NCBI GenBank assembly: GCA_041744595.1
Contig: JBGTKO010000273.1
Span: 14,644-78,643 of the forward strand
Origin: Pirellulales bacterium
GTDB taxonomy: Bacteria; Planctomycetota; Planctomycetia; Pirellulales; UBA1268
Length of the DNA: 64,000 nucleotides
Direction: 5' to 3'
A program made the position numbers and the translations under genes. Of the stretch, positions 10,998 through 55,376 are shown piece by piece. The notes beneath the pieces were generated by a model. That model worked only from the letters and a program-made list of their open reading frames with translations. It made no database searches and had not been told where the DNA came from. Numbering within the stretch: the stretch's first letter is position 1; every line of letters starts with the position of its first letter.

Positions 10998-11019
10998 ACG
11001 GGAGAGGTACGGAATAACA

Positions 11020-20958: not shown

Positions 20959-20999
20959 TCACACGGTATCCGCAGGGTCGTCGAGGAGCCAAGTCACGG

Positions 21000-21461: not shown

Positions 21462-21667
21462 ACACGAACCGATCGCTGCGACCGTCCGTTCGTAAACTCG
21501 CCTCCGTCATCGGCTCCCGCGATGATGGCTCACAATGGCCACACAGTCGCCGAGCGCCCGAGCCTTCTCACCACGCCATCGTGCGGTAGGATGTCTGACC
21601 GACTTGCCGGGTACTCGTGCAAAAGGCCTCCCGGCGAGCTCCCTTCACCGACGGAACCACGAACCGC

Positions 21668-23929: not shown

Positions 23930-23967
23930 TCAACCCATTGGCGGTGGGTTTCGCTTCGCGCAATACG

Positions 23968-37994: not shown

Positions 37995-38551
37995 GCGGCA
38001 CCTCCTTCGGGATTCCCGTCTTGGTCACCGCCCGCTGCCGGTGTGGCACCCGCGTCGCCGAGACCCATCTCGCCCGCCAGCTTTCTGAGTTGATCGTCGC
38101 TCTGAAGAATCTTCTCGAGCTCTGACTCGAGCCCATCGGCACGGTCGATCGCACTGAGCAGTTCGCGGAGACGATTCCGGGTATCGAGAAGCTTTCGGAG
38201 TGGGTCGATCTGTTCGACGACCCGTGCTGGCTCGAAGTCTTCGATGGACGAGAACGACAGTTTGACCGGCATCTCCGTGCCGTCGTCGGCCAGGGTATTG
38301 GCCACGCGAAACTCGAGACCCGGCGTCATTCGTCGCATCACTTCGTCGAATGAGTCGCGATCGATCGACACAAACTTGCGATCCTTGAGCGGCTTCAGGG
38401 GCTCGGTCGGGTTTCCCGAGAAATCCCCCATGACACCCACGACGAAGGGGAGATCCTTGACGACCACCGCCCCCTCGGTTTCCACCTCGTAGGTGATATG
38501 CACCCGCGGCTTGCGGACTCGGCTGAGCTTCTGTTGAACCGATTCAGGCAT
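37991..38551 (-). CDS. tssB: TssB contractile sheath small subunit
   Basis: The ATG at 38551 is preceded by [50 protein letters not shown] is the canonical TssB/VipA N-terminus. Confidence 0.95.
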
Positions 38552-38717
38552 GATGCACCTCGTAGGAGCCTTTCCCCAGCAGCGGGAACGGGTCAATCCT
38601 TCGGCGTGGAGAACAGCTGCTGGATACCGTCCGCAGATCGTCGTGCACCCGAGGCCTTCCGTCAAGGTGCCCATGGGAAGCGGAGAAAAGTTAACCTGAT
38701 CCTCATGTCGAAACTGC

Positions 38718-39857
38718 TTACGTCGAGGGAGGGCCTGTGCCGATTCCGACGAATTTGAAGAGGGATTCGAGGGCCGAGCTGTCGCCGATCACTTCGCGGA
38801 AGTACTCAGCCCGTGGAAGCCTGCCAAGCCGCACGACATTCCTGATCTGGGTCGCCAAGAGGCTGTGTGGGTCGTGCTGCTCGAAATAGCCGGCGATCCG
38901 CTCGAGCTGCACAAAGGCCTCTTCTCGAGTCCCTGGCGATGGAGCGTTCAGACTCCCGGCGCTGACGGCCGCGACAGCCTTCCCTGGGGCTCCATCTTCT
39001 GGTGCACGTGGGTGCTCTGCCACATGGGGCGCGATGGTCCGAAGCGCCGTCCCGAAGTCCTCGAAAAACTGGCGGACGGAAGAACCTGGGATGGTCGCTA
39101 GACCATTCGAGGCAGTGGAAACCGCTTCGCAGAGTCCCTCCCAGGCATCGCGGGTCGCGGCCAGCAATTGGGAAGTCGCAGAAAAATGCTCCGGAGGCGT
39201 GGCTGCAACCGCCGCCGCAAAGTCGGCCGGGGCGATCGCTCCTCGGGACACGGCCATCGAGAGTTTCTCCGGATCGTTCTCCGAAACCAGCTCTTGACTG
39301 CTCTTCCAGTGGCACAGGCCGTACGTTTCCCCATCGCGGTTGCGAGTGAGCGGGACTCGAAGGAGTGCCGGAGCCAACAGCCCCTCCGACTCCAGGCCGG
39401 CAAGCCGAATGAGAGGCCCGGCCCGCTCCTCGACCATGGCGGCCTCGTCAGCAGGACCGTCATCCGGGTCGGGAATCGGATAGAGGTCAGTCCACCAATT
39501 CTTGATGAGTGTCCGTGCCACATGACAGCCGAACCCGAGGCCAGCCAGTCCGTCCGTCCGCACCAGCGACTCCAGCAGGAGTGATGCCACCGCTGTATCC
39601 CGCGACACTTCGCGTATCGTGGTCACCGACTCGTCCCGTAGTTGCCTCCACAGCGATACCGCGGCAGGCCAACCTCCTTCCGTTGCATCGCCATCGTCGG
39701 CGCGACGCTCGATTCTTCGGGCCTCTTCGCGGAGGTCCCTGAGCTTGGCACGTAGCTTTCTGCCCGCGTCGTCTGCCTGCAGGTTCACGCCGCAGGGGTG
39801 CGGTCCCGGCAGCGGAATTTTCAGAGTCTCCAGGTCGAACTCGAAGGGCAAGTCCAT
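38718..39857 (-). CDS. tssA: TssA (ImpA_N family)
   Basis: The ATG at 39857 gives [46 protein letters not shown], which fits the ImpA_N pattern. The C-terminal [36 protein letters not shown] resembles the conserved TssA C-terminus. Confidence 0.8.
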
Positions 39858-39903: not shown

Positions 39904-41253
39904 TCACCTCCACCAGCGGCCAACGGTAATTGCCGCGGCCGCAAGTGCCAGCGCGACATTCAAAACGAAGAGAACGCCCGCAGCCCGCGTTCGGCCGCGA
40001 TCGGCACCCCGCTTGGCCGGTGTCCACTCCAACTCACCCTGGAGGGTCGCGACGTACTCAAACAGGCCCTTGATGAATCCGCGACGTTGCCCTTGCGATG
40101 GCGCGGAGGCCAGCCAAGCCCCTGCGAACAAGGGGCCGTCCACAGCACCGGACCCACCGTTGCAAAGCCCGTTCAGGACTGCCTCGAGCCGCGGGAGGAC
40201 ATCCAACCGGACCGCCACCAGAAGCTCACACAACGAACGGTTGAATGAAGGCTGGGCAACCGCCCGTCGGTCGAGCAACTGCTGCGCTACCGTATCGGTC
40301 AGCCCGCCGGCCGCATACCTGGCAACCAACGCGGGAAGCCCATGGGTGAGCGGCGTGTTCGGCTTGATCGCTTGCCCAACTCGCTGGGCTCTGGCCGCTG
40401 GTGGCAACTGCTCCATGAACACATCGAATCCGGGGAGTTTCTCGATTGCTCCAGCCACCACCACGACCGGAGCCCGGAGACCCGTTCTCTTGGTGACAAG
40501 TGTGAGATCCTCGCCGACAGCAGCACCCACTGCCGAGTACCCTTCTGCCGAAACCGTCGCGACGATCGGTACGGTCACCACCACGCCGTTGATCGCCGCG
40601 ACGGGCTGCCGCGCGGTCGCCAGGCATTGGCATACCGATGCCAAACGATCAGATGCCGTGTCCTGCTCGCTGCGGCTGATCGCCGGCTCGACGCCCTCTC
40701 GAAGCTTTCCAGCGACCGAGCAGATTTGGCCGGCGGTCGAGAGACACACGTAGATGCCATCGACTCCCGCGTACACGTGAAGGGGACTGGCCCCAGAGGG
40801 CGAACCGAAAACGAGGAGCGGTATCGGACACTCCTGCATGACGTTTCGCTCACCCTCGTTGCCGTCGCAGCCCAGCACGAGAAACAAGGGAGTGGACCGT
40901 AGGTCGATCTGCTGACGGTCCATCTCAGCTCGCGCCGCCCACCACGCAGCTTCGATGTCGGGCCATCGGGCCACGTCTTCCTGAAACCACAGCCGGGCAG
41001 CCTGATACACCAACACGGGGACGAGCACCATGAGCACCAGGAGCACGATTCCCTTGCCTGGGCTCCACCAGGCCCGGAACAGATGGGATCCACCCACGGT
41101 GAACATGGCCACGACTGCCAGCGTGACGATGAGTACCTGGAAGGCTGCCACGGCCCAGGCGGCCCGTGCGGGCAAGGACATCGACAGGTATCCGCGGACC
41201 ATCCTCGAGAATGCCGTCGCAGGGAGCATGAGGATGTCGAAGAGAGTCTTCAT
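39904..41253 (-). CDS. tssM: TssM/IcmF-like inner-membrane protein comprising only the N-terminal TM1-TM2 / cytoplasmic domain / TM3 module
   Basis: TM helices at aa ~30-52 and ~67-90. TPLFLVLGCDGNEGER sits where TssM has LPWYLLIGxxGxGKT; STAGQ sits at the DTAGR position. Further matches are LRAPVVVVAGAIEKLPGF and GAWLASAP..GFIKGLFEYV. The third TM helix GVLFVLNVALALAAAAITVG is followed by a stop 6 residues later. Confidence 0.8.
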   Translation of the reverse strand: MKTLFDILMLPATAFSRMVRGYLSMSLPARAAWAVAAFQVLIVTLAVVAMFTVGGSHLFRAWWSPGKGIVLLVLMVLVPVLVYQAARLWFQEDVARWPDIEAAWWAARAEMDRQQIDLRSTPLFLVLGCDGNEGERNVMQECPIPLLVFGSPSGASPLHVYAGVDGIYVCLSTAGQICSVAGKLREGVEPAISRSEQDTASDRLASVCQCLATARQPVAAINGVVVTVPIVATVSAEGYSAVGAAVGEDLTLVTKRTGLRAPVVVVAGAIEKLPGFDVFMEQLPPAARAQRVGQAIKPNTPLTHGLPALVARYAAGGLTDTVAQQLLDRRAVAQPSFNRSLCELLVAVRLDVLPRLEAVLNGLCNGGSGAVDGPLFAGAWLASAPSQGQRRGFIKGLFEYVATLQGELEWTPAKRGADRGRTRAAGVLFVLNVALALAAAAITVGRWWR

Positions 41254-41275: not shown

Positions 41276-41893
41276 TCATGCCAACCAGAATGCCCACCAT
41301 GCCGTCACGAGGAGCGTTCCACAGACCACGAGGAAGACGAGCAAATGCGTGAGTAATCGTTGGCTCCCATAGAGCGGAGGGGCCCCGGCCAGCGGAACCA
41401 CCTGGACCGGCAACGTGGGACGGTCCTCGCCAGGTCGGACGAAATGGGCATTCGTCCTGAGCCACGCTTCGAGCCGGTCCGGTTGATCCCGGAGGATGCC
41501 CCGAAAACCCATCAGGACGCCGAGGACATAGATATGAATCACGTCGGAAACCGGGAGAGAGGCCGCGATCTCGGCGTTCGAGAAGTACGCCGTCGCGCGG
41601 TGTCGCGAGCCAAAGAGATCGACCTCGAGTGCATGGTTTTCCCACCATGACCGTCCGGCCCACTCGACATCCACGATCAACATTTCGTCCACGAGCGCGG
41701 CCAGGGCAAAACTCGTCAACCGCCACTCATCGCTCCGCGGTCCCCGCAGCCGCGACTCTGCCGTGTCGAAGACACGCCGAAGTGCCGCCCGCTCGATCTC
41801 CGCCGACTGGGTCGCGCCTCGCTGGGCACGATCAACGAGTTCAATGATGCGACGCAGGAGCGGCAGCGTCGCGGCGGCGAATTCTGGATGCAT
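41276..41893 (-). CDS. tssL: TssL / DotU-family membrane protein
   Basis: DotU-like cytoplasmic domain (LAALVDEMLI, HIYVLGVLMGFRGILRDQPDRLEAW). Single C-terminal TM helix LLTHLLVFLVVCGTLLVTAWWAFWLA. No periplasmic OmpA/peptidoglycan-binding extension. Confidence 0.85.
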   Translation of the reverse strand: MHPEFAAATLPLLRRIIELVDRAQRGATQSAEIERAALRRVFDTAESRLRGPRSDEWRLTSFALAALVDEMLIVDVEWAGRSWWENHALEVDLFGSRHRATAYFSNAEIAASLPVSDVIHIYVLGVLMGFRGILRDQPDRLEAWLRTNAHFVRPGEDRPTLPVQVVPLAGAPPLYGSQRLLTHLLVFLVVCGTLLVTAWWAFWLA

Positions 41894-41914: not shown

Positions 41915-43381
41915 CTACCTCGGCACCGCAAAAAGCGCGAATTCGAGTGTCGCGACGCGGCCCTCGAATGTGACCTCGAGCCGCCGACGGCCCGCAAGCT
42001 GCTCAGGATTCAGGATCGAAGAATCCCTGACCCGAATGGCAAGATTTTGCGTCACTTGAACGGACTTGTACGCAGGCGAATCGGCACCGATTCTATAGTA
42101 AATCCACCCGCTGCTGGCAGGCAATGCCCGCGGAGCACGATCCGGAGCATGGAGCTCCAGCCCCGGTAGCCCCAGCCGGAACAATCGGTCCACCTCATCG
42201 CTGCTGCCGAGCTTCCAGTCGAGGTGCGCGTTACCCGAAAGAAGTCGGTGACAATCCTCCTCAGTGAGGTCGCCCCGAAGGACCCCCACATACATCTGCC
42301 AATCGGTCTGGAGCCATTTGGGCTCGAGCGACACCGAAAGCGAGGCAAGCCCACTCCCCAGGAAGTACCGCTGTTCGTATTCGAGTGCCGCAACGCGACC
42401 GATGAGCGCCTCAATCTTCAGTTTGACCGTCCGGAAAATGCCCGCCAAATCATCGTGATCGTAGGGGGGCAATTCATCGAGGAGCCGGCGTGGTTCAAAG
42501 ACTGCCAACTGGCCCACGACCCGACAGAGCTCGCCGTATGCGGTCCGCGGATGGATTCCAGGCGAGAACGCGATCACCCGCAGCACGGCTTGAGACTCGA
42601 GCAATTTCGAGAGCATCATGAGCCGGTCCAGATCCCCCGGCTCGGAGCTCGAAAAGCCGACACGCCGAGTCACGGCCTGTTCGGCAAGCACTTCCACCTT
42701 CCGGCTGATCAGGTCATAGGTGCCACGGACGATGTCCCTCCCGAGAGGAGGCCATGCGTCGATAGCGAGCAGCGGAGGGACATATTCTGGATCCAGCTCT
42801 GGTGAGCCTTCACGATTGCCCGCCCGCCTCACCTGAGCGATCGGAAGGAGTTCGAAGCCGGAGAGGTCGTCGGTCGATAGTTTCAGCACCACATTGAGTC
42901 GGCAGAACTCGACCTCTTGATCGTTTCCGCCAGCCGTTTCGTCCTGGAGCGATTGTCGCACAACGTGGGAGCGTGATCGGTCGAGCGGCCCAGGCGGTGC
43001 CACGTTTGCAGACGAGGGATCGAATCGGGGAACGGCGAGGTACACCCTCAAACGGTCCACGTCATTCAGTTCTTCGCCCAACGATGCCGCGAGCTTGGCC
43101 ACATCGTCGGCCGCTTGCCGCAGACCGAGCCGGTCGGGTTCTTGGCCAGGTTCGAGCCAGACGAGAGTTCCATCCCGAAGTCGTGCCTGGCAACTCCGGA
43201 GCTCAAACTGTCGGTTGGCGAGCGCACCGGGGTCAATCTCGAGTCGCACAATCCCGTAGCAGCACGGATCCGACGCCACGGTCGCCGCCGAAAGCCGCTC
43301 ATTCCACGACCTGTCATGGGCCTGGAAATGGTGGGGTCTGAGAAAGAGACCTTCCGACCAGTGAACAGGCAGATGACGCAT
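41915..43381 (-). CDS. tssK: TssK baseplate protein
   Basis: The ATG at 43381 gives MRHLPVHWSEGLFLRPHHFQAHDR, the canonical TssK N-terminus. 488 aa. The ORF upstream of this ATG is implausible. Confidence 0.9.
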   Translation of the reverse strand: MRHLPVHWSEGLFLRPHHFQAHDRSWNERLSAATVASDPCCYGIVRLEIDPGALANRQFELRSCQARLRDGTLVWLEPGQEPDRLGLRQAADDVAKLAASLGEELNDVDRLRVYLAVPRFDPSSANVAPPGPLDRSRSHVVRQSLQDETAGGNDQEVEFCRLNVVLKLSTDDLSGFELLPIAQVRRAGNREGSPELDPEYVPPLLAIDAWPPLGRDIVRGTYDLISRKVEVLAEQAVTRRVGFSSSEPGDLDRLMMLSKLLESQAVLRVIAFSPGIHPRTAYGELCRVVGQLAVFEPRRLLDELPPYDHDDLAGIFRTVKLKIEALIGRVAALEYEQRYFLGSGLASLSVSLEPKWLQTDWQMYVGVLRGDLTEEDCHRLLSGNAHLDWKLGSSDEVDRLFRLGLPGLELHAPDRAPRALPASSGWIYYRIGADSPAYKSVQVTQNLAIRVRDSSILNPEQLAGRRRLEVTFEGRVATLEFALFAVPR

Positions 43382-43639
43382 GGCTTCCAATGGCAGTCGC
43401 GGTTTGCCAGACGCGGCAGGCGAATGCCCGCAAGGCCATGACGGATGAAACGACGACGGATGAATCGACAGATCACAATCAGGGATGGTACCAATGCATC
43501 GGGACTCGGTAAACTCCCGCAGCATGCGGCACAGTGATTGAGTCGCTTATTCATCGCCAGCCCAGTTCCATCGGCTTTCCACTGCCTCGTCCACGTCATG
43601 GATTCCACATCGTTTGGACGCTCGCACGAGGCCGGCAGC
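43382..43639. promoter_or_regulatory. Divergent intergenic region between the tssK core operon (minus) and the giant-protein operon (plus)
   Basis: The non-coding gap is 156-285 nt, depending on the start chosen for the giant gene. Promoters are inferred from arrangement only; no motif is claimed. Confidence 0.35.
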
Positions 43640-46600
43640 ATGGCGGAGTCGGGCGAGCCGCGATCAATGAGTTGGCGGCCGGAGCAGCCATCGAACCGCC
43701 GTTGGCGGGGCGGGCGATGGTTCGCTATTGCCGGCCTGATCGTGGTTGTGATTCTCGTTGTGGTCCTGATCGTGAACCTCGTGCTTGCCCCACTCCACGC
43801 GTGGCGAACGGGGCTCGTGATGCTCGCGTTCGACGCCTATGAGCCGAGGATGTTCGAGCCGGTTCCCTTCTGCCGCGAGGACATCGCGGCGTTGTCTTCT
43901 CGGCTCGGCGGCGATGACGAGGCCGCCGGCATCCTTCCCCCACTCGAGTTCGAGGGGCTCGATTCGGCCGAGGTAGTCAGGGCTTCGCTCGGACCGCGGT
44001 GCGGGCAACTCGGCATGCGGCGGAAGGATGTGCTCGTGGCCTACGTTCGGGGCCAAACATTCGTGGTCCCGCCGCGGTTCAACACGGAGGGTAGCCCGCG
44101 GAATGACCCCTTGACTGGACGGCCCTGCCTGTTCGCAGCCGACTGTAGTGTTCGTGGACAAGTGGTCACTGGAGTCGTCCCGATCAGGGAGGTGGTCGAA
44201 GCGATCGGATCGGCCACGAACTACACGACATTGGTGGCGATCGATATGGGCAGCCTGGGATGGGATCCACGATTGGGAATCGTTTCGCCACTTGTGCCAG
44301 CGTGCCTTGATGATGAATTCACTCCGCCGCAGGAGCAGGCAACGTTTGCCAACTGGGTCATCGGATCCCACGACACGTTTGAAGCGTCCTGGGCCAGCGG
44401 CCCGGACAGGCGAACGTTTTTCTCACGGGCAATGGAACTGGCTTTGGCGGGAGAAGCCGACAAAGCCCCCTGGGGGGACCAGGATGGGATTGTCGAGCTC
44501 GACGAATTGGCCCGGTTCGTCACGGCTTTGACCAGCGAGTGGGTCAGCCGAGCGAGCGGGGGTCGGTACACCCAAAGACCCGTCGTTTGGAAGATCGGCA
44601 CGGGACGTGTCCCACTAGCGGCAATTCCCCAGGGAATCGCCATCGTGAGAGTCCAGCGGCTTTCGCCTCCCGAGTCCAAGCCCCTGAAGAACAAGCCGTC
44701 CGAGGCCCCGAAGGACGGCCCCGCGCCCACCACAACCAGTGCGATACCGGGCTGGCTGCTGAAAGGCCGCCGGCAGTTCCCAATGATGTCTGCAGCCCTC
44801 CTTCAGTCGGATTCTGGGAAGCCCGCGAAGAACGAGGGGGCGAAGAAGGAGCAGGACGATCAGAAGCAGGCGAATGACACGAAGGAGACGAGAGCCAAGG
44901 CCGAGCCACCAAAAGATGGCTCAGCGACGGTGCCGGCCGGCGGTTCGAAGGCTGCGACTGCCTCGACGGATCCTGGCGGAAAAGCGACCGCCGTCGATCC
45001 GAAAGAATCGATGCCAGCCGAGCCGCAACCCCCTCCGGTCCCGCCGACGCTTTGGGAGTTGGTGGATATTGGCACGCGGAGAACCGACGGGCCGGACTCG
45101 ACGGCTCTGCCGATCGACTATGCGTCTCACATCTGGAGGACTGTCGTCGCCCAATCGGCCGCCGTGACCGTGCGGCTTGACCGCGCGTCTGATGAGTCGG
45201 AACGCGAACAGGCCAGTCGTGGTCGTGACGGACTTTGGAACGGACTTGCAGAACTCTTCTCGCCGAAAGCTCTCGGGCTGGGCCCCGTCCCACCGGTAGA
45301 CGTGGTGACTGTTGTCGAAAGACTGAATCGAGCCAAACGGGCTGCCACGGCGGGAGGATTTTTTGATCGTTGGTCAGTGGCTCCAGCCAGATTTCGGACC
45401 GCGGTTGCCACTCGCAACGACACCGCTGAACGGCTCTTGGCCACCTCCGACCTGATGGCACGGGTCGCGCTCGGGGCTGGTACTCCCAGAATCGAGCCGC
45501 GAATCCTTCTTGACTGTAGCAGGCAGGTGGCCTCGCTTTCGACGGCGATTGCCCGGCTGGCCGACTTCGAAGAGGACGTGACACTGTCTCAATCCGACAG
45601 TCTGGAATCAATCAGTCGAGCCGTTGCCACGGAGCGGTCGTCACTCGATGCGGTTAACGCATCGATGGTCGAGGGAATGGTTGATCGCTCGGTTGCCACG
45701 GGCGTGTCCCTCGACGGCAACGTAGCCACGGCCGCCCTTCGAGTGCCTGGGCTCGGAGCCAAAACCCGTCGCTCGCTCTTTCCAGTGCTGGGTTCGGGAG
45801 AGTCACGGGAGATGGTCGCGGGAGTCTCACTGCTGACTCCTATTGGGCCTCTCGCCGTTGACACATCACCCCGACGGGTGTCCAGTGAAAGAGCAGAGAA
45901 TGTTCGCGCGCATTGTGACCTGCTGCTTCGGGCCATGGAGGCCGCCGGGTTGACGCCGATCGGTTCGGACCGTGTTCCAGGGCCGCTTGTCTGGCCTCTC
46001 GAGCGAATGGCAGCGGTTCGGCGAGCCGCCGAGCTCGTCACCAAGCCGCTGAACGATGGCGAACGAGTCAAAATGATGCTCTCGCTTGCCGGCCGGCTTG
46101 CTCATCTCTACGCCGAGATTGCCGACTCCGCCGACGGTGTTGCTCGTGAGACGCAAGAGCTTGCCGCCGTCGATCGCATAGCCTCGCTCTTTCGCGTGGT
46201 CAGCCACCGTGATGTGATGCGAATCGGGGAGCTCCCCGATATCCGTCTACCGCGTTGGCACAAACCGGATCGCCTCGGATTGCGGCTCGAATCAGTGGAG
46301 GACGGCTTTCACGACACCGATGCTCCGCTGGCGGTCACGGTTGTCACGGCCGGGGCGGCGATGCCTGCCGATGATGCCGTTGTCCGATTTCGGTACGACC
46401 CGGCCGATTTCACGCTCTCCACGACGTCCGGGGACCCGCTGCTCGTCGATCGCGTCTATCGGTCAGGTGACCTCCCCTTCCGTTCCGACGGGCTCGCACT
46501 CCACCTCACTGCAAACCGTCAGGCAAACACCGCATCCGATCGCCTGGATACGGAACTGACGATTATCGTCGAATCAGGGGGCCGCCGAGACGTGGCTTCG

Positions 46601-48583
46601 AAGCGATTCAGTCTGCCCGACGAGCGGTCGATACGACTGGCGGCTCGCCGCTTGCCCCTCATGATGGCGGCGGCTGAATGGACCTACTCGATGGCTCGAC
46701 CATCCCTGGGAGGAAGCCCATTAGAATGGCGGGAGGCACTCCTCCCTTTGACCGTGCCGGCAGGGCGACCCTCCGCCTTGGCAATGACCCTCGAGAATGG
46801 CGCGGAGATCGACCGCGAGGTGAGCGTCGCGGTGTATTCGATCCCGTCCGGCCCCGAACCGGGCAGTCGGGCTCGGGCGTGGCACCTCTTCCGGCAGCGG
46901 TTGCTCGAGGGTGCCGAGCCTTCGGCCAAACTCCTCGGCCGGATCGAATCGCTCATCGTACCTGCCAGTGGTGGCCAGTCGCTGATCGCTCTACCACCTC
47001 CCGCTCCGCCCGAGCCTCTTCCGCCGCCGCCAGAGGCCGGGCCGGCCGCAGGAGCAGCCCTGGAACTCGTGCCGCAGCCTGTTGGTCCAGACCTCGCCGT
47101 GGCGGTTCAGGAACGAACAAAAGGGGAGCCGCCTCGTTCTTGGCTCCATCGCGTCGGACTGCTGACCTCCCATCCCCGTGACGTGCTGGTTGCAACCGCG
47201 ACATGGCGCCGTGACACCAGGACGATTGCCATCGAGATCGGCCCGCGTGACGGTGCGCCGCTCACAGAGCTGACGCGATGCCGTCTTGTGCCACTGCCGG
47301 CGGCACCCGTCGCGGGGCAGCAGTCGATTGCCATCCGACGTGAGGCAGTTGTCCTGACGCCGGAAAGTCCCCGCCAGTCGATGCTCGCCGACTGGAACGG
47401 CGCGGAACGCGATGCACGTGCTTGGCTTGCGGTTTCCGTCGATGGATATCCCCGTGCCTTTGTGTTCGGTGTGGAATGTTCGGCTGCTTCTGCAGGGCAG
47501 TCCCAACAACCGCTCTCTGATTGGCGTGCGATCGCGATCCGTGAGCCTCGGCAAGCGGAACAGGAGCTCAAGGCACCGTTGCCGACAATCCCACTGACAC
47601 TTCAGGTAGACGCCCCTCCGGATTCGGCCGTCGCTCCCTTCACCGGAGACCGCGATACGACCGATGAGCTCCCGACCGCTCCCCTCCTTTCGGTCCTGCT
47701 TCGAGAGCGAGACCAGGAGGCAGGGCCAGCCCGATCCGAGGCCATCGTCTGGTCGGCCGCTGCGGATCGGCAGATCGAATTCGTTCCCGCGCCACCAAGA
47801 CCAGACGCAACGCTCGTCGTCGAACCACGGGTGACCGATTGGTCGATCGCCCCGTCCAGCAACGGGTATGTCGATGTTGATGTCCTGGTGGAGGCGCGCC
47901 TGAGCATCCCTGGCGTTCAGGCACCGTTGACCGACCGCCGCCGCCTTCGGCTCGACGGTAAGCCTCCGCGGATCGAACTGCCGCCCCTCATGAACGCCCA
48001 GGTCGGCCGTCCGCTGACCGTGCCTGTTCTCGTGCTCGATGATCCACGGGAGGCTTTCGGGGCAACGTCGGGGATCGACCTTCCGGGCGTTACGGGTGTG
48101 CAACGCGTGGACTGGGCGATCGACCTCGCGGGCACCGGCAAGCCCGAAGCCTGGCAGCCTGCGGTGGGGCTGGGTGAGGGACGGTACGAGCTTCGCGTCG
48201 ATACCAAGCAACTCCCGCCGGGCCGCCAGACTCCCGTCCTCGTACGGGCGGTCGATCGGGTCGGGAACATGGCGGAACCGTCGCGGGTCTGGATCGAGAC
48301 GCGGGCATTGGCCGCAAAAAATGGCATTCGGGGCCGCGTGATGCTCAACGGTCGCGGAGAGGCGGGCGTCAGCGTTCAACTCGATGGCCCTGCGGCCCCG
48401 GCTCCAACAACTTCTGGCAAGGACGGATCATTCCAGTTTGACCAACTTGATGCCGGCAGTTACACGGTGCGAGCCTCAGGGGCCGTTCGGAATCGTCTCT
48501 ACCGGGCGGACCCGCAGCCTGTGGTCGTCGATCCGCCGCCTGCCGAGCCTCCCCGCATCACGATCGAACTAAAGCCGAAGTGA
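43640..48583 (+). CDS. Giant single-pass membrane protein: degenerate caspase-like domain, long unassigned region, C-terminal CarboxypepD_reg-like domain
   Basis: The start is uncertain: TTG 43538, ATG 43598, ATG 43640 (preceded by GAGG) or ATG 43667. Basic stretch then TM helix (RRWRGGRWFAIAGLIVVVILVVVLIVNLVLA). The caspase-fold-like segment DVLVAYVRGQ..TLVAIDMGSLGW..FFSRAMELALAGEADKAPWGDQDGIVELDELARFV lacks the catalytic His and Cys. C-terminus GIRGRVMLNGRGEAGVSVQLDG..DGSFQFDQLDAGSYTVRA. Confidence 0.8.
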   Translation: MAESGEPRSMSWRPEQPSNRRWRGGRWFAIAGLIVVVILVVVLIVNLVLAPLHAWRTGLVMLAFDAYEPRMFEPVPFCREDIAALSSRLGGDDEAAGILPPLEFEGLDSAEVVRASLGPRCGQLGMRRKDVLVAYVRGQTFVVPPRFNTEGSPRNDPLTGRPCLFAADCSVRGQVVTGVVPIREVVEAIGSATNYTTLVAIDMGSLGWDPRLGIVSPLVPACLDDEFTPPQEQATFANWVIGSHDTFEASWASGPDRRTFFSRAMELALAGEADKAPWGDQDGIVELDELARFVTALTSEWVSRASGGRYTQRPVVWKIGTGRVPLAAIPQGIAIVRVQRLSPPESKPLKNKPSEAPKDGPAPTTTSAIPGWLLKGRRQFPMMSAALLQSDSGKPAKNEGAKKEQDDQKQANDTKETRAKAEPPKDGSATVPAGGSKAATASTDPGGKATAVDPKESMPAEPQPPPVPPTLWELVDIGTRRTDGPDSTALPIDYASHIWRTVVAQSAAVTVRLDRASDESEREQASRGRDGLWNGLAELFSPKALGLGPVPPVDVVTVVERLNRAKRAATAGGFFDRWSVAPARFRTAVATRNDTAERLLATSDLMARVALGAGTPRIEPRILLDCSRQVASLSTAIARLADFEEDVTLSQSDSLESISRAVATERSSLDAVNASMVEGMVDRSVATGVSLDGNVATAALRVPGLGAKTRRSLFPVLGSGESREMVAGVSLLTPIGPLAVDTSPRRVSSERAENVRAHCDLLLRAMEAAGLTPIGSDRVPGPLVWPLERMAAVRRAAELVTKPLNDGERVKMMLSLAGRLAHLYAEIADSADGVARETQELAAVDRIASLFRVVSHRDVMRIGELPDIRLPRWHKPDRLGLRLESVEDGFHDTDAPLAVTVVTAGAAMPADDAVVRFRYDPADFTLSTTSGDPLLVDRVYRSGDLPFRSDGLALHLTANRQANTASDRLDTELTIIVESGGRRDVASKRFSLPDERSIRLAARRLPLMMAAAEWTYSMARPSLGGSPLEWREALLPLTVPAGRPSALAMTLENGAEIDREVSVAVYSIPSGPEPGSRARAWHLFRQRLLEGAEPSAKLLGRIESLIVPASGGQSLIALPPPAPPEPLPPPPEAGPAAGAALELVPQPVGPDLAVAVQERTKGEPPRSWLHRVGLLTSHPRDVLVATATWRRDTRTIAIEIGPRDGAPLTELTRCRLVPLPAAPVAGQQSIAIRREAVVLTPESPRQSMLADWNGAERDARAWLAVSVDGYPRAFVFGVECSAASAGQSQQPLSDWRAIAIREPRQAEQELKAPLPTIPLTLQVDAPPDSAVAPFTGDRDTTDELPTAPLLSVLLRERDQEAGPARSEAIVWSAAADRQIEFVPAPPRPDATLVVEPRVTDWSIAPSSNGYVDVDVLVEARLSIPGVQAPLTDRRRLRLDGKPPRIELPPLMNAQVGRPLTVPVLVLDDPREAFGATSGIDLPGVTGVQRVDWAIDLAGTGKPEAWQPAVGLGEGRYELRVDTKQLPPGRQTPVLVRAVDRVGNMAEPSRVWIETRALAAKNGIRGRVMLNGRGEAGVSVQLDGPAAPAPTTSGKDGSFQFDQLDAGSYTVRASGAVRNRLYRADPQPVVVDPPPAEPPRITIELKPK

Positions 48584-48888: not shown

Positions 48889-50019
48889 GTGTGGGGTCGC
48901 AGCACCATCGGGAGTCTCGTCATGGCGGCAGCCATGGTTGCCGGCGCCTGTCGTGTCTCCCATGGGCAGCAGCCGACACTCTGGAGCTTTCTCGGAATTG
49001 GCGCGGCACAAAACTCTTCCGATCCAGCCATTGCGGCTGCCGCCAAGGCAAAAGCGGCGAAACACAAAATATGCTGTCAAAAGAAAGCCCTCCGGTACCT
49101 AGCCTCGATGGGATGCACCCCAGAGCACCCTGAGGTCGCCGAGGCGATTCTGGCTGCCATGGGGGATCCCGAAGAACCGGTTCGGTACGAGGCAGTGAAG
49201 GCGGTCCTTCAGACTGCTGGTGACTGTATGTCTCCCGAGCAGAAGCGGGCGATGCGGCAGGCACTGGGGTTCCATGAGTACTGTTCCATGCAAAAACAGA
49301 AGTGCGAGAAGGCCATCCATGCCTGCCTCGAACGGCTGTGCGGAAAAGCGGCGCCTAAGCCTCACAAAAAACTCTCGGACATGCTGCCTTTCCGGCAGTC
49401 ATGCGAGGACCCTTGCAAAAAAGAGCCGGATCATTGCGCTCGACGGGGAATCTGCTGCACTCCGGAGATTCGCGAGAAACTCCGGCAACTCGCATATGGC
49501 CGCGATGAAGCTGGCTGTTTTCTCGAACCCAGTGAACGGGTGCGGACCGCAGCCGAGCAGGCACTCGAGGCGTGCCAAGCCTGCTGTGGGAAGCGTGGTT
49601 CAGCGTCGGGAGGTCAGGGTGGGGCGGGGGCGAACGCCTGGCGGGAAATGCCTCCAGCGGAGACCCACGAAACAGACGCCACGAGGGCTATCGACGGCAG
49701 CCGTTCACCGGCACCGGGTTGGCCCGGCATATCCGTGGAGTGCGAGCGAGCGCACGGAGGCGTATCACCGATGGGTCCGTTCGGGATTCCTCATATACGC
49801 GAGATCGACGACCGTCCGTTGAACCAGAATCCGATGAACCAGAATCCGGTCCCCACTCCGCCTGAACCGACTTTGGAGTTTCCAGCGACTTCTCCCGTGG
49901 AGCCGTTGCCGCAGCCGCCGCCTACGCCTCCGCCGAGTCAATCCGCCGAGGCTGCCGATCCCTCAAGCGCACCCCAGACCTGGTTCCGGACTTCGTCCCT
50001 GTTCCGCTGGAGACGCTAG
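48889..50019 (+). CDS. Secreted Cys-rich HEAT-like protein with Pro-rich tail
   Basis: A GTG at 48889 preceded by GGAG gives a plausible signal peptide (WGRSTIGSLVMAAAMVAGACRVSHG). Alternative starts are ATG 48727 and ATG 48922. About 18 Cys (KICCQKKALRYLASMGC, CCTPEIREKL, ACQACCGKRG). HEAT-like DPEEPVRYEAVKAVL. Tail NQNPMNQNPVPTPPEP..PQPPPTPPPS. Confidence 0.65.
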   Translation: MWGRSTIGSLVMAAAMVAGACRVSHGQQPTLWSFLGIGAAQNSSDPAIAAAAKAKAAKHKICCQKKALRYLASMGCTPEHPEVAEAILAAMGDPEEPVRYEAVKAVLQTAGDCMSPEQKRAMRQALGFHEYCSMQKQKCEKAIHACLERLCGKAAPKPHKKLSDMLPFRQSCEDPCKKEPDHCARRGICCTPEIREKLRQLAYGRDEAGCFLEPSERVRTAAEQALEACQACCGKRGSASGGQGGAGANAWREMPPAETHETDATRAIDGSRSPAPGWPGISVECERAHGGVSPMGPFGIPHIREIDDRPLNQNPMNQNPVPTPPEPTLEFPATSPVEPLPQPPPTPPPSQSAEAADPSSAPQTWFRTSSLFRWRR

Positions 50020-50051: not shown

Positions 50052-53000
50052 ATGAGCGATCCAACAGAACGATCCGACGATCCTCAGCCACCTCGCTGGC
50101 AAACGGGCCCGCGACGAGGTCCGACGTCATCCCCTCGCGGGACTGGAGAGTCCTGGCGAGTTGCCTCCGAGCAGTCGAGCGGACGGCGAAGCGTGTGGGT
50201 CTGGTTGGGGCGGATCCTCGCGTCCGTTCTTTCCGTGGTCTTGCTGGGGACGCTCATCTGGCTCCTTCTCTCGCTGCGTCATCCCGTGCCGCTCGTCGGC
50301 GGCTTTGCAACAGCGTACCGGGCCCCGCTACCGCCGCGGGCATTGACAGCCGAGGATCGGAGAACCCTGGAGCGGCTCGCGACGGCGGGGGGTGGCCTCT
50401 TTGAACCTCCGTCAGTTGCCTGGTTCGATGCCAGTGATCAACTGGCCAACTCGGCACAGACGCGGCCATGGGACACCCTCACGAAATCCGTTCGGATGGT
50501 TCGGCCAGGCGGCCCAGACAACGACATGGTTGTCGTGTACCTCGGGATGGTCGGCACACTCGACCATGAGGGACAACCCTGCCTCGCCATGCCTGCCGAT
50601 GGGGAAGGTCCAGGCATCCGTGTGGCGGAGCTCCTTACCGACCTGCGGGATGCTACTCCGGCAAGTGCGGGCCTCCTCGTGGTCCTGGATGGGTGTGAGG
50701 CTGGCCTCGGCTGGCCGCTCGGCATTGCTGACGGCTCTTTCGCGCCCGCGGTCGAAGCGATGGCCCGCTCGAGCACGATCCCGCGGACGTGGGTGCTGGT
50801 GTCTGCCGGCGCGGGCGAGCGATCGCACGGTGACCCGGAAGATGGTGGCAGCCTCTTTGCGACGTCTTTCGCCGAAGCGATCGTTGGAGCTGCTGATCGT
50901 GCTCCGTTCGGAAACGGTGATGGTCTGGTGCAGTTGCGGGAGCTTGCCACGTTTCTCAGCAGTGAAGTCCCGCGGCGGAGCCGGCTCCAGTTTGGCAGCA
51001 CCCAGACGCCCCTTTTGATTCCGGCGTTCAATGATGCGCGGGGCGAAGATCCGGCCATCGCATGGGCGATCGACCAACCAGCCACCGGACTGGTGGGCGG
51101 CCTTCGCCGTTGGTTTTGGGGCTCATGGGGGCTCGAAACGGACGCATCCAGTCGTCGTTCGGCAAGCGTCAACTCGATCGACGCGCGAGGTCCTCGCTGG
51201 TGGCTCGCCGAGCGGTGGGCTGCAGCCTCGCGACTTCGTGCCGAAGCGGTCCATGGCCATCCGAATCGCTGGCAACGGTACCAGCAGCTCTTGATGCGGG
51301 CGGAGCATTTGCTGCGGTGTGGTGCCGCAGCCAGCGAGGAGCGGATTCGCACGGAAACCCTCGTCGAGCGGCTGGAGGTGGAGCTAAAAACCGCAACGCT
51401 GGTCGATGCCTCACGGCTTCCCTCGGTACGGATCAATGAGTGGAGCTCGACCCCTGCCGAGATGGAAATCGCGGCTGCGTGGCGGCGGGACTTCGCGGAG
51501 ACCTTGGCGTCCGTCCAATCCACGCCACAGAAACTCGTGCCGCCATCGACGTATCCCAGGGCGGAATGGATCGGTCGGTGTCGAGCCGCGTGCGATTGGC
51601 TTGAAATCGAGGCTCCCCGGAATCCGCTGACACCAGACGGTCTTCAGGCGTGGCTGGCGAGCCTGGGCCGATCGGGGCCCGATCGGCTTCCGGAACCGAT
51701 TGAGGTTCATACCGCACGCATGGTCGCGAGGCATCTCGACGACGGTGTCTGGCTGTCAGCACCCGATCTGCCAGGTCGACTCCTGCGTCTGGTTGGCATG
51801 TCACGGCGGGCAGCACTCCCCGACGACGTGAGGAGCGACCGCGCCATCGCGCTTGTCGCGAACCGGAAGGCCCTCGACGAGGAACTTCGCCGAGCGATCG
51901 ACTTGATGCTCCTGGCCGATCCCGACTCGGTTTCCGAGGCGCGGCAGGTGGCGGCGATGCTCGAGTCCCGCTACGAGGAGATCATTCGTCTGGGAGTGGC
52001 TGCCTCAACCACCGTCCGATTGCTCGACACGGTCGATGATGAGCTTCCCTGGCTTGCGGCCTGGTGGGTCAGTGAAGCCCGTGCTGCCGTTCGAGGGGAT
52101 GGGGCTCAGCCGCCCGCTGTCGAATGGTTGGAGTTGCTCGACTCGGTCGCTGATCTTCGACAGGTTGTTGATCGGAGCCTCGGCGTGCGAGCAGAAGAAG
52201 CAGTGATCGCTTCGATTGACGAAACGGTCGCGGTGCTCGACGAGGCCCGCAGTCGCACCGAGGAAGCTCTCCAGAGCCTCACTGGCGGCTACGAGGCGGC
52301 CTGTTCCGAACTGGTCAACGCCGCGTCGGATAGCCCCGTCACCCTCGGGCGGATCCGCCGTATCCTCGATATCCCGCTGCTCCGTGGCCGACGACGGATT
52401 GCCTTATGGGAGCGAGCAGAAGCCCTGCGGGTCATTCCTGTTCCGGCACCGAGCCCGACGGAAGGCACGCTGCCGGAACCAGATCTTCGGACGGCAACGG
52501 CCGGCTGGATTTCTTGGAAGGACACGGTTGTCCATCCGGTGGTCCCGATCCTCGCGGGTGACGTCGGGGGCGCAGCGTCGCTTCCTACGGAAGCGGACGA
52601 TGTGGCGGTCGCCGTGGCCCGACAAGTCGATGCCATCAATCGACAGGTTTCGCTCCTCCCCGAAACACTCGGCCGCTTGGGGAAGGAGCGGGCCGCTGCG
52701 ACGCTGGCCGATCCCGACAAGACTCGAGCCGATCCCTATCTCGAGTCGGGTGATCTCCTCGCGAGGCGACTTGCTTCAGTGACCTGCTTCCGGAACGTGC
52801 CGGATGTGCCATCGTCGGTTCATGTCAACTTTGTCGCAGCTTGGCATGATCGGCTGACGACAGCCGCCTCCGATGCGATCGACGATTTCTGGACGGGCGT
52901 CGAACCTGGGGACGGACCTTGGTACGCCGAGACAGCCGAGGAATTTCTCACGGCAGCTTCCGAACTCGTCAGTCGTTCCGGTGTGTCCCACGGCACGATG

Positions 53001-55193
53001 ATCCGCCGGGCAGTCGAGGCCCGTCTCCGAAGCCTGTCCGCGGTCGGCATGTTCGGCACCGTCAAGGTCGCTCCCGAGGTGCTCACCCTCTATCCGTCGC
53101 TGATCGCTGCCGATTCCCCGACAAGCCGCACTTCGCTGCGGACGACCCGGGGAGTTCCATCCGGGCTGGCGGCCTTGTGGTTCGCCGAATCACTCAGTGG
53201 CATCCCCATCGGTATGGTTCACCGAGTCGGAAATCGTTCTCCCGACGCGGTCGATATCTGGGTGCCGTTGAATGTTGAAGCAGATGGGGGCGAGTCTGGG
53301 GTGTCCTGGAAGGTGGTCGCCGCGCCGACGCTGCCCGGAAATGTGAGCGGACCGAAGGTCATCGACATGATCGTTTGGTTTCGAGGGCACCGCGTCGTGG
53401 TTCCTCTCCCCGTGCTCACAGCGGGAGATGTCCGCACTGTCGAGTGGCAACCGGCCGAACCACGGCCGCCGACGGTCACCGTACGTGGGACCGTGCCCCG
53501 CCAGCGTTCTGTCGCGATTGTCTTCGACTGTTCGGGCAGCATGGGGCAGCGGCTCCTCGACGGTCGCACGCGACTGACAGCGGGCCGCGATGCACTCATG
53601 GGCGTGCTTGAATCCATGTCCAAGGAGGGGGGATGGAACGTATCGCTTTGGCTCTACGGTCATCGGACCGAGTGGTCTCGGAGCCGGGGCGGTCGATACA
53701 CGGCTGGGTTTACGGAGGAGGGCAAGCGGCAGCGGGATACAGCAATCGCCGATGGCAAGCCGTTTCGTTTGGTCCCCGGCAACGATGTCGAGCGAGTCCT
53801 CGACATGCAGCCACTTTCACCGGTTCAGCTCATGCAGATCCGAACCATTCTTGACAGTCAGCGGCCTGGAGGCGAGACACCTCTGTACCGCGCGATCGAC
53901 GAGGTTTTGCGGATCGACTTCGCGACCGCCAATCCGGCACCGGGGCATGTGGTGGTCGTGACCGATGGGGCAAACGAACAGAGCGGCGGCACCATCACGA
54001 CGGCTTCTGACGTGCAGCGGTCCCTGTCACTCGTCAACGTCGGTCGTCGGGAGGAGGATCTCATCCGTATCGATGTGATCGGTTTCGACATGCCTTTTGG
54101 CGGGGACGGCAGGCAGATTCGGATGCAAGATCTCCAGTGTATGGCGGAGGAGAGCAAGGGGGCCTACTTCGACGCGACCGATCCGCGGCGTCTCACGGCG
54201 GCTCTGGAGCGATCGATGCGGTCGCTCCGTTGGCAAGTCCAGAGCCCTGTAACGGGGCGATTGACAGCTTCCTTGGGTGACCCTATCACGCTCCCTCTCC
54301 CCGCCCGAGGCTCTGCCAACACCTACGATGTGCAGATGGAAGCGGGCCAGTTTCCCCGACGTGTGATCGTGTCAGGCGGTGAGGCTTTGGAATTGTTCTT
54401 GGCCACCTCCGGTCGGCTCGAGTTTCGTCGCTATACGGGGGGCTTCGAGCAGGGGCTTCGTGATTCCCATGCCGACCTGCCTGACCCCGCGGATCCAACG
54501 CGGCGCTGGTTCATCGGGGCGCACATGACCCACCGGGAAGGGGCCGATGTCCGATTTCCGATCTCGGTCCAGAACAACTCGGCCGATGGATTTTCGCCGC
54601 GGCCAACGGCCGCGTGGATCGAGGTCACTCCGCGAGGAGATGGAGGGCCGATCGAGCCAGCATACGTGTTCTACGATTTGACGTTCGAGCCGGGGCGACC
54701 AGTTCCGGTGCTGCAACTTCGGGCGACCGACTGGCCTGCCGGTGCCACGATGGCTGAGGTGCGAGCCTGGGTTCGATTTATCGACTGCCCGCCGACGATC
54801 ACGGTCCCGCTATCCTCACTCCCGATCGCGACCGATTCTGTTGTGCCCGTTCCCGGGCTCGAGGGCACCTCCCTTCGCATCCGCGTATCGCGCCACACCG
54901 GCGACAATGAGCTGCGTGTGACGGTCATCGAAGAGCATCCCCCTGCGGTGGATCAGTCAACGCGAAGGCTACGAATCGAAGTGCGGCCCGGTTGCCGGCA
55001 TGCGGTCCATGTCTCCGAACCTGGGGCCGCGAGGATCCGACACGAATTCGTCGTCGGACTTGTCGATGGGTTGCTTCCAGGTGACGTATCCCTCCTGGTA
55101 ACCGATCGCGAGGACATCATTCGCAATGCGGTGGGACCACGTTTCCGTGGTGGGCCAAGCGAACCCTTGATCGTTCCCGTGTCACCGCGGTGA
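50052..55193 (+). CDS. Giant single-pass membrane protein, related to 43640..48583 through a paralogous N-terminal domain: caspase-like domain (Cys kept, His not evident) and C-proximal vWA domain
   Basis: TM helix VWVWLGRILASVLSVVLLGTLIWLLLSL. Caspase-like DMVVVYLGMVG..GLLVVLDGCEAGLGW..LFATSFAEAIVGAADRAPFGNGDGLVQLRELATFL is colinear with the first giant. vWA with intact MIDAS (VAIVFDCSGSMG, GGETPLYRAI, VVVVTDGANEQSG). Confidence 0.85.
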   Translation: MSDPTERSDDPQPPRWQTGPRRGPTSSPRGTGESWRVASEQSSGRRSVWVWLGRILASVLSVVLLGTLIWLLLSLRHPVPLVGGFATAYRAPLPPRALTAEDRRTLERLATAGGGLFEPPSVAWFDASDQLANSAQTRPWDTLTKSVRMVRPGGPDNDMVVVYLGMVGTLDHEGQPCLAMPADGEGPGIRVAELLTDLRDATPASAGLLVVLDGCEAGLGWPLGIADGSFAPAVEAMARSSTIPRTWVLVSAGAGERSHGDPEDGGSLFATSFAEAIVGAADRAPFGNGDGLVQLRELATFLSSEVPRRSRLQFGSTQTPLLIPAFNDARGEDPAIAWAIDQPATGLVGGLRRWFWGSWGLETDASSRRSASVNSIDARGPRWWLAERWAAASRLRAEAVHGHPNRWQRYQQLLMRAEHLLRCGAAASEERIRTETLVERLEVELKTATLVDASRLPSVRINEWSSTPAEMEIAAAWRRDFAETLASVQSTPQKLVPPSTYPRAEWIGRCRAACDWLEIEAPRNPLTPDGLQAWLASLGRSGPDRLPEPIEVHTARMVARHLDDGVWLSAPDLPGRLLRLVGMSRRAALPDDVRSDRAIALVANRKALDEELRRAIDLMLLADPDSVSEARQVAAMLESRYEEIIRLGVAASTTVRLLDTVDDELPWLAAWWVSEARAAVRGDGAQPPAVEWLELLDSVADLRQVVDRSLGVRAEEAVIASIDETVAVLDEARSRTEEALQSLTGGYEAACSELVNAASDSPVTLGRIRRILDIPLLRGRRRIALWERAEALRVIPVPAPSPTEGTLPEPDLRTATAGWISWKDTVVHPVVPILAGDVGGAASLPTEADDVAVAVARQVDAINRQVSLLPETLGRLGKERAAATLADPDKTRADPYLESGDLLARRLASVTCFRNVPDVPSSVHVNFVAAWHDRLTTAASDAIDDFWTGVEPGDGPWYAETAEEFLTAASELVSRSGVSHGTMIRRAVEARLRSLSAVGMFGTVKVAPEVLTLYPSLIAADSPTSRTSLRTTRGVPSGLAALWFAESLSGIPIGMVHRVGNRSPDAVDIWVPLNVEADGGESGVSWKVVAAPTLPGNVSGPKVIDMIVWFRGHRVVVPLPVLTAGDVRTVEWQPAEPRPPTVTVRGTVPRQRSVAIVFDCSGSMGQRLLDGRTRLTAGRDALMGVLESMSKEGGWNVSLWLYGHRTEWSRSRGGRYTAGFTEEGKRQRDTAIADGKPFRLVPGNDVERVLDMQPLSPVQLMQIRTILDSQRPGGETPLYRAIDEVLRIDFATANPAPGHVVVVTDGANEQSGGTITTASDVQRSLSLVNVGRREEDLIRIDVIGFDMPFGGDGRQIRMQDLQCMAEESKGAYFDATDPRRLTAALERSMRSLRWQVQSPVTGRLTASLGDPITLPLPARGSANTYDVQMEAGQFPRRVIVSGGEALELFLATSGRLEFRRYTGGFEQGLRDSHADLPDPADPTRRWFIGAHMTHREGADVRFPISVQNNSADGFSPRPTAAWIEVTPRGDGGPIEPAYVFYDLTFEPGRPVPVLQLRATDWPAGATMAEVRAWVRFIDCPPTITVPLSSLPIATDSVVPVPGLEGTSLRIRVSRHTGDNELRVTVIEEHPPAVDQSTRRLRIEVRPGCRHAVHVSEPGAARIRHEFVVGLVDGLLPGDVSLLVTDREDIIRNAVGPRFRGGPSEPLIVPVSPR

Positions 55194-55376
55194 AAATGGT
55201 GAGCTTTGCGCTCGGCAAAATCGCCTGGGCCATCGACCAACTCGACAAGAAGGGGCCGCCCAAGCCGCGCCCGCCTCGCATCTTGCCAGCATGACTCGAA
55301 CGATCTTGACGGCTGCACGTCCGGGTCGCTAATCCTCCAGGCGTTGCCATGCCCCGGCTTTGCCCCCCAGGCCGCC

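Follow-up and report, generated by a model that had tools for sequence, protein, structure and literature searches.

A type VI secretion system (T6SS) encoded in a 64-kb stretch of DNA from a Pirellulales bacterium (contig JBGTKO010000273.1; the whole stretch is called the window below) has a TssM protein that consists of the N-terminal third of TssM and nothing beyond. The open reading frame (ORF) lies on the minus strand at 39904..41253 and encodes 449 amino acids (aa): two transmembrane helices (TM1 and TM2), an IcmF-related_N domain on the cytoplasmic side, in which the Walker A motif is degenerate, and a third helix (TM3), after which the protein stops. This short form is ancient and conserved across a large planctomycete gene family, and it marks a whole lineage of systems, beyond this genome. 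In the clade to which the window belongs, tssK, tssL and the short tssM have as their partner in every case a divergent operon, G1-(p430)-G2, which codes for two giant proteins (G1, 1647 aa, 43640..48583, and G2, 1713 aa, 50052..55193, both on the plus strand) and, between them in the window, for a secreted cysteine-rich protein, p430 (48889..50019, plus strand). We give about an even chance to the reading that this planctomycete T6SS lineage has a re-partitioned membrane complex, in which short TssM and TssL form a docking platform and G1, p430 and G2 the periplasmic part.

The short TssM and its end point

A first reading of the DNA, made from the letters and without database searches (the sequence-only reading), had described the product as TM1, TM2, the cytoplasmic domain and TM3, colinear with the N-terminal third of TssM. 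Hydropathy, domain search and profile alignment agree on this. A 19-residue hydropathy scan places TM1 at residues 35-53, TM2 at 68-86 and TM3 at 424-442. The sole Pfam match is IcmF-related_N (PF14331), over residues 202-389 (E 1e-13). Positions 199-300 of a profile of the short-TssM family align by hhalign with residues 195-296 of the full-length TssM of Azospirillum (1192 aa) at 91% probability, and it is this alignment that establishes the colinearity. TIGR03348, the NCBIfam equivalog for the whole of TssM, scores 25.7 bits, below its cut-off of 388.15, and the alignment spans profile positions 193-370 of 1168. A search of PDB sequences with the short-TssM profile gave no useful match.

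The C-terminus reads ...AAAAITVGRWWR-TGA, with the stop codon at 39906-39904; at the DNA level the 3' end of the gene is ...ATT ACC GTT GGC CGC TGG TGG AGG TGA, that is, ITVGRWWR. The sequence-only reading was right that TssM ends shortly after TM3, but the residues beyond the TM3 boundary that it had itself drawn number four (RWWR) and not six. It had also noted that the next gene, tssA, starts 46 nt downstream, with no split-off periplasmic half beside the short tssM, and this is what is found: the tssA ATG is at 39857 (MDLPFEF...), 46 nt 3' of the stop. In-frame read-through of the stop meets a second stop after 11 codons and yields nothing TssM-like.

One element of that description has to be corrected. 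The Walker A motif in the cytoplasmic domain of TssM is GxxxxGK[ST]. The corresponding position of the short TssM is LVLGCDGNEGER, without GK[ST], and the family consensus there is LVLGxDGG; GK[ST] is absent at this position in all 22 short-TssM sequences that were aligned. The P-loop that had been announced is thus degenerate. ATPase activity of TssM has been reported (PMC3346141).

Conservation of the short form

A word-indexed search recovered 38 clusters of short-TssM homologues, 398-527 aa long and down to about 30-32% identity. In the 22 clusters that were aligned, every protein stops 2-6 residues past TM3, except for one outlier of 30% identity with a longer tail, and the C-terminal tail usually carries a W-W-R/K motif. 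An exhaustive profile search of 1.84 billion cluster representatives (clusters at 50% identity) gave 2074 matches at E<=0.001; the number was 1066 with the threshold at E<=1e-10, and 667 with E<=1e-30. The 150 best-scoring proteins are 210-639 aa long, and in them the match stops only a few residues short of the C-terminus. Where family members are longer, the extra length is an insertion inside the cytoplasmic domain, as the sequence from one related locus, L029, exemplifies.

Every family member that bears a taxon label belongs to the Planctomycetota; a named one is QGJ71932.1, from the complete genome CP043547.1 of Planctomycetales bacterium 10988. The short proteins from metagenome-assembled genomes are annotated by NCBI as 'IcmF/TssM N-terminal domain-containing protein'. 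Scanning a single genome for each GTDB species yielded 19 loci, and their labels were Planctomycetota, Pirellulales or Planctomycetia throughout. The window has a GC content of ~63%, and its closest match among these loci is 51% identical, none being near-identical.

These data dispose of the explanation that the short gene is an artefact or a product of decay, be it a stop introduced by sequencing, a nonsense mutation confined to one strain, or the degeneration of a locus that no longer functions. The same end point recurs in aligned homologues from independent assemblies, and the profile search adds short forms by the hundred. What follows the stop does not resemble TssM, and the core genes around it are intact, with conservation across loci of ~70% for TssK, ~85% for TssC1 and ~73% for ClpV. 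We found nothing in favour of this explanation, consider it already refuted by the comparative data and assign it next to no probability.

Search for a periplasmic half and for TssJ

Domain scans were run on all the large ORFs of the window, including both giants, and, of the small ORFs lying between T6SS genes, on the main ones. Among the ORFs scanned there was no match to PF06761 (IcmF-related), PF06744 (IcmF_C) or TssJ/SciN. The two giants were a possible place for a TssM periplasmic domain to be hidden, and this was ruled out along several lines. No such domain was detected in G1 or G2 with Pfam, NCBIfam, or phmmer and hmmsearch against PDB; the family profiles of G1 and G2, aligned by hhalign with the full-length Azospirillum TssM, reached probabilities of 0.1% and 1%, respectively; and Foldseek searches of PDB with AlphaFold models of the C-terminal parts of G1 and G2 listed no TssM chain among the 50 best matches.

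Lipoboxes were sought at all ORF starts from 13 to 60 kb, and two starts fitted, that of p430 and that of a 79-aa ORF inside G2, of which only p430 is a candidate gene. It was rejected as a TssJ-like lipoprotein: the window copy has a loose lipobox (..MVAGAC), and eight homologues carry signal peptides of the signal peptidase I (SPase-I) type without the cysteine. Both Pfam and the lipobox scan, for the window, thus bear out the sequence-only reading that no tssJ-like gene is present, just as the profile, PDB, hhalign and Foldseek searches bear it out on the absence of IcmF_C and IcmF-related domains from neighbouring ORFs, the two giants included. With the stop being neither an assembly error nor a strain-specific nonsense mutation, everything that this reading had named as speaking against it came back negative, which supports its conclusion that the apparatus crosses the envelope in some other way.

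It could still be imagined that the TssM periplasmic half, and perhaps TssJ, have their genes at another place in the genome and that the products combine in trans with the short TssM. What can be seen is 64 kb of this genome and 10-kb flanks in relatives, and T6SS genes can be scattered. Nevertheless, such a gene lies beside the short tssM in 0 of about 35 loci examined, and the C-terminus of the short protein is a conserved, finished end. Since the short form is kept over hundreds of clusters, the split would have to be ancient and stable, and a stand-alone fragment would require an export signal of its own. We judge a split system of this kind to be improbable.

Linkage of G1 and G2 to tssK, tssL and the short tssM

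The genes of the window were compared by tblastn with all the related loci that were fetched, with flanks of ~10 kb in the relatives. In each of about 25 related loci in which sequence upstream of tssK is available, a G1 homologue is the divergent neighbour of tssK. G2 follows G1 directly in one sub-clade (L001, L003, L005), and a p430 homologue stands between the two in L008, L015, L019, L020, L024, L026-28, L031-33 and L035-36. When homologues of G1 or G2 were taken as the point of departure instead, 8 out of 8 contexts proved to be T6SS loci with the same layout, and this architecture also surrounds the two G1 homologues that are most distant (E 1e-32, 19% coverage). Within the clade that keeps the linkage, TssM identity falls to ~37%. 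Downstream of G2 the genes vary between loci. In the window's clade, G1 and G2 accompany tssK-tssL-short tssM without exception, a point that the sequence-only reading had overlooked.

Some of these loci have a gene for a sigma-70 factor of the extracytoplasmic function type between the short tssM and tssA (L026 4804-5978, L027 5474-6139, L035 4829-5967, L036 4730-5886), which may be a dedicated regulator. It is accompanied by a gene of ~150 aa in L026, L035 and L036; the window has neither.

Predicted architecture of G1, p430 and G2

G1 is transcribed divergently from tssK. Its product begins with a TM helix and a domain of ~300 aa, followed by a Pro/Ala-rich low-complexity linker, a helical region (~45107-46222) and about 7-8 tandem immunoglobulin (Ig)-like beta-sandwich domains (~46280-48580), the last of which is CarboxypepD_reg-like by a weak match. 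An AlphaFold2 model of the last 1158 aa, based on an alignment of 37 sequences (mean pLDDT 81.8), shows ~370 residues in long helices and then ~7-8 beta-sandwiches. Its best matches in PDB, by Foldseek, are the macroglobulin (MG) domains of alpha-2-macroglobulin and complement, Ig arrays, and fragments of the grappling-hook protein GhpA.

G2 is built along similar lines, with an N-terminal TM helix, an N-domain, a helical region (~51720-53042) and beta-sandwiches, to which are added a von Willebrand factor A (VWA) domain (~53505-54224), with the metal ion-dependent adhesion site (MIDAS) motif DCSGS, and more beta-sandwiches. The model of its last 1157 aa (11 sequences, pLDDT 76.8) contains ~440 helical residues, beta-sandwiches, the VWA domain inserted among them, and further beta-sandwiches; by Foldseek it comes closest to pilus-tip adhesins that bear a VWA domain (PitA, SpaC, PilB) and to integrin headpieces. 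Across the aligned G2 homologues, the MIDAS residues D-C-S-G-S...T...D do not vary. The C-terminal halves of G2 and G1 thus share fold classes with the pilus-tip adhesins and with MG/Ig proteins such as alpha-2-macroglobulin and GhpA, respectively. The whole-chain template-modelling scores of 0.1-0.2 and identities of 8-13% indicate a domain type and not a family and, unlike those proteins, G1 and G2 are predicted to be anchored in the inner membrane and are linked to a T6SS.

By hydropathy, each giant has a single N-terminal hydrophobic helix with an Arg-rich tail ahead of it. According to the positive-inside rule, this predicts that G1 and G2 are type II inner-membrane proteins, with the N-terminus in the cytoplasm and the C-terminus outside. 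Over their first ~300 residues the two show homology (hhalign probability 99.3%, E 3.7e-20), the N-domains lying at 43775-44740 in G1 and 50280-51200 in G2. This shared domain belongs to no Pfam family and has no PDB match by sequence or by profile. Motifs such as VELDELARFV and LVQLRELATFL had suggested a caspase-like identity (Peptidase_C14/CHAT), for which no support was found: there is no Pfam match at E<=5, and both hhalign against an Azospirillum caspase-family protein and a PDB profile search were negative. The Azospirillum T6SS cluster (L034) does contain, at 37052-39220, a 722-aa protein annotated as 'caspase family protein', which has no detectable similarity to G1.

The start codon of the 430-aa gene for p430 is uncertain, the ORF being open from 48727. 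The protein has HEAT-like repeats (weak matches) and a Pro-rich tail. Its homologues possess cleavable SPase-I signal peptides with AxA before the cut and Q after it (...AHA/QTT, ...ARA/QTG). Because of this, and because the lipobox-like cysteine is not conserved, p430 is probably periplasmic and not a lipoprotein of the TssJ type.

The large size of G1 and G2, together with the adhesin-like Ig arrays and the VWA domain with its MIDAS, could be taken to mean that they are cargo or surface adhesins exported or displayed via the T6SS, and not parts of the machine. The N-terminal TM anchors and the positive-inside pattern predict, on the contrary, that they are retained in the inner membrane. No delivery domain of the PAAR, VgrG, Hcp or MIX type is present in either protein, both of which, at ~1700 aa, are far beyond the capacity of the Hcp lumen. 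Moreover, the giants are never linked to the vgrG/Tvp module, the position of which differs among loci. For these reasons we regard cargo or exported adhesins as very improbable.

Outer-membrane candidates and distant loci

Directly after G2, at 55206..56417 on the plus strand, the window encodes an outer-membrane beta-barrel-like protein (OMP) that matches Phenol_MetA_deg (PF13557) with 26.5 bits, against a cut-off of 22. No homologue of it was found in 36 related loci, and the relatives run from G2 straight into housekeeping genes. In L032, for instance, EcsC comes directly after G2, while the window has ~6 kb of extra genes, including that for the OMP, before EcsC (61444-62493). The OMP was accordingly discarded as a conserved outer-membrane partner; it is left as a weak, window-specific candidate whose membership of the system is doubtful.

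Two distant loci, L029 (CP043547.1) and L030, keep tssK-tssL-short tssM with a TssM ~25-30% identical to that of the window. The gene next to tssK (L029 5806-7401, L030 4260-7634) there encodes a protein with a C-terminal domain of ~270 aa, 36% identical between the two loci, which has a weak match to PF13557 in the L029 protein and none in the L030 protein. Both proteins terminate in an aromatic residue, like outer-membrane barrels, and in that of L030 a signal peptide and ~800 aa of acidic repeats (recurring YSDSLIKR) precede the barrel-like domain. This barrel-like protein is a possible alternative outer-membrane partner. Homology between it and the window OMP was considered and set aside: BLASTP gave nothing significant, and what connects them is weak matches to PF13557. 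Sub-lineages appear to pair the short TssM with different envelope proteins.

A proposed re-partitioned membrane complex

In the reading that we put forward, the short TssM and TssL would dock the TssK baseplate at the inner membrane, and G1, p430 and G2 would assemble around this platform into a part that spans the periplasm. The three proteins would thereby take over the roles that the TssM periplasmic domain and TssJ play in Proteobacteria. That they supply the periplasmic part is suggested by synteny and topology. The planctomycetal periplasm is unusually wide and the cell envelope atypical. With somewhat less than even confidence, we go further and see here a distinct, hybrid class of T6SS carried by Planctomycetota, in which an ancestral platform of TssL and the TssM N-terminal module would be combined with a lineage-specific periplasmic scaffold of p430 and two paralogous ~1,700-residue proteins anchored in the inner membrane (each a helical stalk with Ig-like arrays, and one with a MIDAS-bearing VWA head), fitted to the wide periplasm; it would be the third independent way, after TssJLM and TssNQOPR, of getting a contractile injection system through a diderm envelope.

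Several observations weigh against this reading. The case for a role of G1, p430 and G2 consists of synteny, topology and fold class, and the modelled VWA domain and Ig arrays, being typical of adhesins too, are as compatible with a role in contact or as accessories as they are with a structural role. p430 is absent between G1 and G2 in the sub-clade L001, L003 and L005. No outer-membrane component is kept with the G1/G2 module, the window OMP not being found in relatives. In L029 and L030, there is no G1 or G2 within 10 kb and the beta-barrel-like protein adjoins tssK instead; it follows that the short TssM predates the G1/G2 module or is more widespread than it, and that there are other solutions. 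Finally, the ground covered for a separately encoded TssM periplasmic domain is limited to the 64-kb window and 10-kb flanks in relatives.

The main rival reading is a system anchored in the inner membrane only, without a standing conduit, in which the spike pierces peptidoglycan and outer membrane anew each time it fires. The giants and p430 would then be accessory and no substitute for a channel, serving for example in contact sensing, adhesion, positioning or the spacing of the wide planctomycetal periplasm. The lack of a conserved outer-membrane partner in related loci is what one would expect in that case, as are the distant short-TssM loci devoid of G1 and G2 nearby. The resemblance of the G2 C-terminus to VWA tip adhesins and integrin headpieces, and of the G1 array to generic Ig/MG repeats, including those of GhpA, points the same way, and there is a precedent for contact-triggered accessory periplasmic factors in TslA of Acinetobacter (PMC13584744). 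Such a role sits less easily with the fact that the giants are strictly linked to tssK-tssL-tssM, and not to effector or vgrG modules, down to ~37% TssM identity, or with their predicted inner-membrane anchors and the membrane-proximal paralogous domain that they share, which suit a structural assembly at the platform. We hold inner-membrane-only anchoring to be possible, though on the unlikely side.

The remainder of the T6SS locus

The T6SS core is complete in the window save for the TssM periplasmic half and TssJ. Domain scans of the ORFs bear out the earlier statement that the other core genes (tssA,B,C,E,F,G,K,L, hcp, vgrG, clpV) are intact. The minus-strand operon has the order tssK, tssL, short tssM, tssA, tssB, tssC1, tssC2, impE/tagJ, tssE, tssF, tssG. 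The baseplate subunit TssK (T6SS_VasE) lies at 41915..43525; its ORF as listed has 536 aa and its homologues ~488, so that the true start is probably later than the one listed. TssL/DotU (41276..41893, 205 aa; PF09850, E 2e-17) has a C-terminal TM helix at residues 180-198 and ends 7 residues past it, without a periplasmic domain. Beyond the short tssM come TssA (ImpA_N, 38718..39857), TssB (37991-38674), TssC1 (36492-37994), TssC2 (34875-36467), ImpE/TagJ (34019-34831), TssE (33447-34004), TssF (31560-33434) and TssG (30433-31842), all on the minus strand, as are, farther on, ClpV (17386-20097), Hcp2 (16734-17228) and Hcp (16045-16611).

The tandem TssC (VipB) paralogues are ~38% identical. 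Every related planctomycete locus keeps the pair, and it is also present in the T6SS of the Azospirillum plasmid (L034); a heteromeric sheath is possible. In L030, a single 589-aa product (18687-20456) matches both the VipA (TssB) and VipB (TssC) Pfam families and may be a fused sheath subunit.

The plus-strand genes between ClpV and the operon encode TvpC/DUF3540 (TvpC-like, 20383-20958), a Tox-PAAR-like protein (20817-21461), VgrG (21617-23257), TvpAB (TvpAB-like, DUF2169 fused to pentapeptide repeats, 23362-26571), TvpB (a TvpB-like pentapeptide protein of 660 aa, 26568-28550) and a DUF4280 (PAAR-like) protein (29125-29646). The segment 20383-28550 constitutes a complete class III Tvp spike-assembly set, which fits a published scheme (PMC13373197), with the DUF4280 PAAR-like ORF separate but nearby. 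Nearer the start of the window, 2491-13719 encodes a MoxR AAA ATPase, a DUF58/VWA protein, a BatA-like VWA protein, a 926-aa VWA protein and a 1420-aa protein with TPR/PQQ repeats; this is a Bat/aerotolerance-like operon, which appears to have no relation to the T6SS.

Comparison with known systems

The planctomycete system has much in common with the canonical T6SS(i), represented by Sci1 of enteroaggregative Escherichia coli and by the Azospirillum plasmid NZ_CP032325.1: the core TssA,B,C,E,F,G,K,L, Hcp, VgrG and ClpV, a DotU-type TssL, the gene order tssK-tssL-tssM, and a TssM N-terminal module colinear with residues ~1-400 of the full-length protein. It departs from the canonical TssJLM complex in that the window TssM is without the ~700-residue periplasmic part (PF06761 and PF06744), no TssJ was detected, and the Walker A motif is degenerate. 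Judged by TssC, the nearest proteobacterial system is that of the Azospirillum plasmid (67.7% identity), with tandem tssC, the order tssK-dotU-tssM and a TssM of 1192 aa. Since this closest relative has a full-length TssM, the planctomycete short form is probably derived. Unlike in the Azospirillum locus, the planctomycete tssK has at its side a divergent operon for two giant proteins predicted to be inner-membrane anchored.

A precedent is the T6SS(iii) of Bacteroidota, in which a non-homologous membrane complex, TssNQOPR, replaces TssJLM (PMC10781749). The resemblance to the present case lies in the existence of lineage-specific envelope proteins that are unrelated to TssJ and TssM, syntenic with tssK and not detected outside T6SS loci. 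The difference is that TssL and TssM are absent from the Bacteroidota systems, where TssN docks TssK, whereas both TssL and the TssM N-terminal module are kept here, which makes the present arrangement a hybrid. In Pfam and NCBIfam, libraries that may not hold models for TssN to TssR, G1, p430 and G2 match only CarboxypepD_reg, HEAT and VWA, and the OMP matches no curated NCBIfam family.

Acinetobacter also has a T6SS in which no TssJ is found, and there the compensation comes from TsmK and from a GS-linker within a TssM of full length (PMC10564176). Its TssM, however, retains a periplasmic domain that reaches the outer membrane; the window TssM has no such domain, and therefore no position for a GS-linker. 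According to the same study, of 1096 genomes from outside Acinetobacter that have tssM and tssB, 27.5% lack TssJ (PMC10564176). The loss of TssJ alone is thus not rare, and the unusual feature here is the loss of the TssM periplasmic domain.

Surveys count Planctomycetota among the T6SS-positive phyla (bioRxiv 10.64898/2026.06.16.732483). In the searchable full-text literature, from which subscription-only papers fall out, we found no description of the arrangement of short TssM and giants. A 2025 review of the Planctomycetota does not mention T6SS, and a 2026 review of T6SS accessory factors does not mention Planctomycetes.

Significance

TssJLM is treated as the defining core of T6SS(i), and the only well-studied exception that we know of is that of the Bacteroidota, where the whole of it has been replaced. 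The existence of a large, conserved lineage that has the inner-membrane and cytoplasmic half of TssM alone suggests that the two halves of the protein may be separable modules, which would imply that docking is the conserved function and envelope crossing an exchangeable one. Detection schemes that demand a full-length TssM and TssJ will under-call or mis-score T6SSs of this kind. For planctomycete T6SSs, on which we found no experimental study in the searchable literature, three uncharacterised, linked proteins, G1, p430 and G2, become candidates for a new envelope-spanning assembly.

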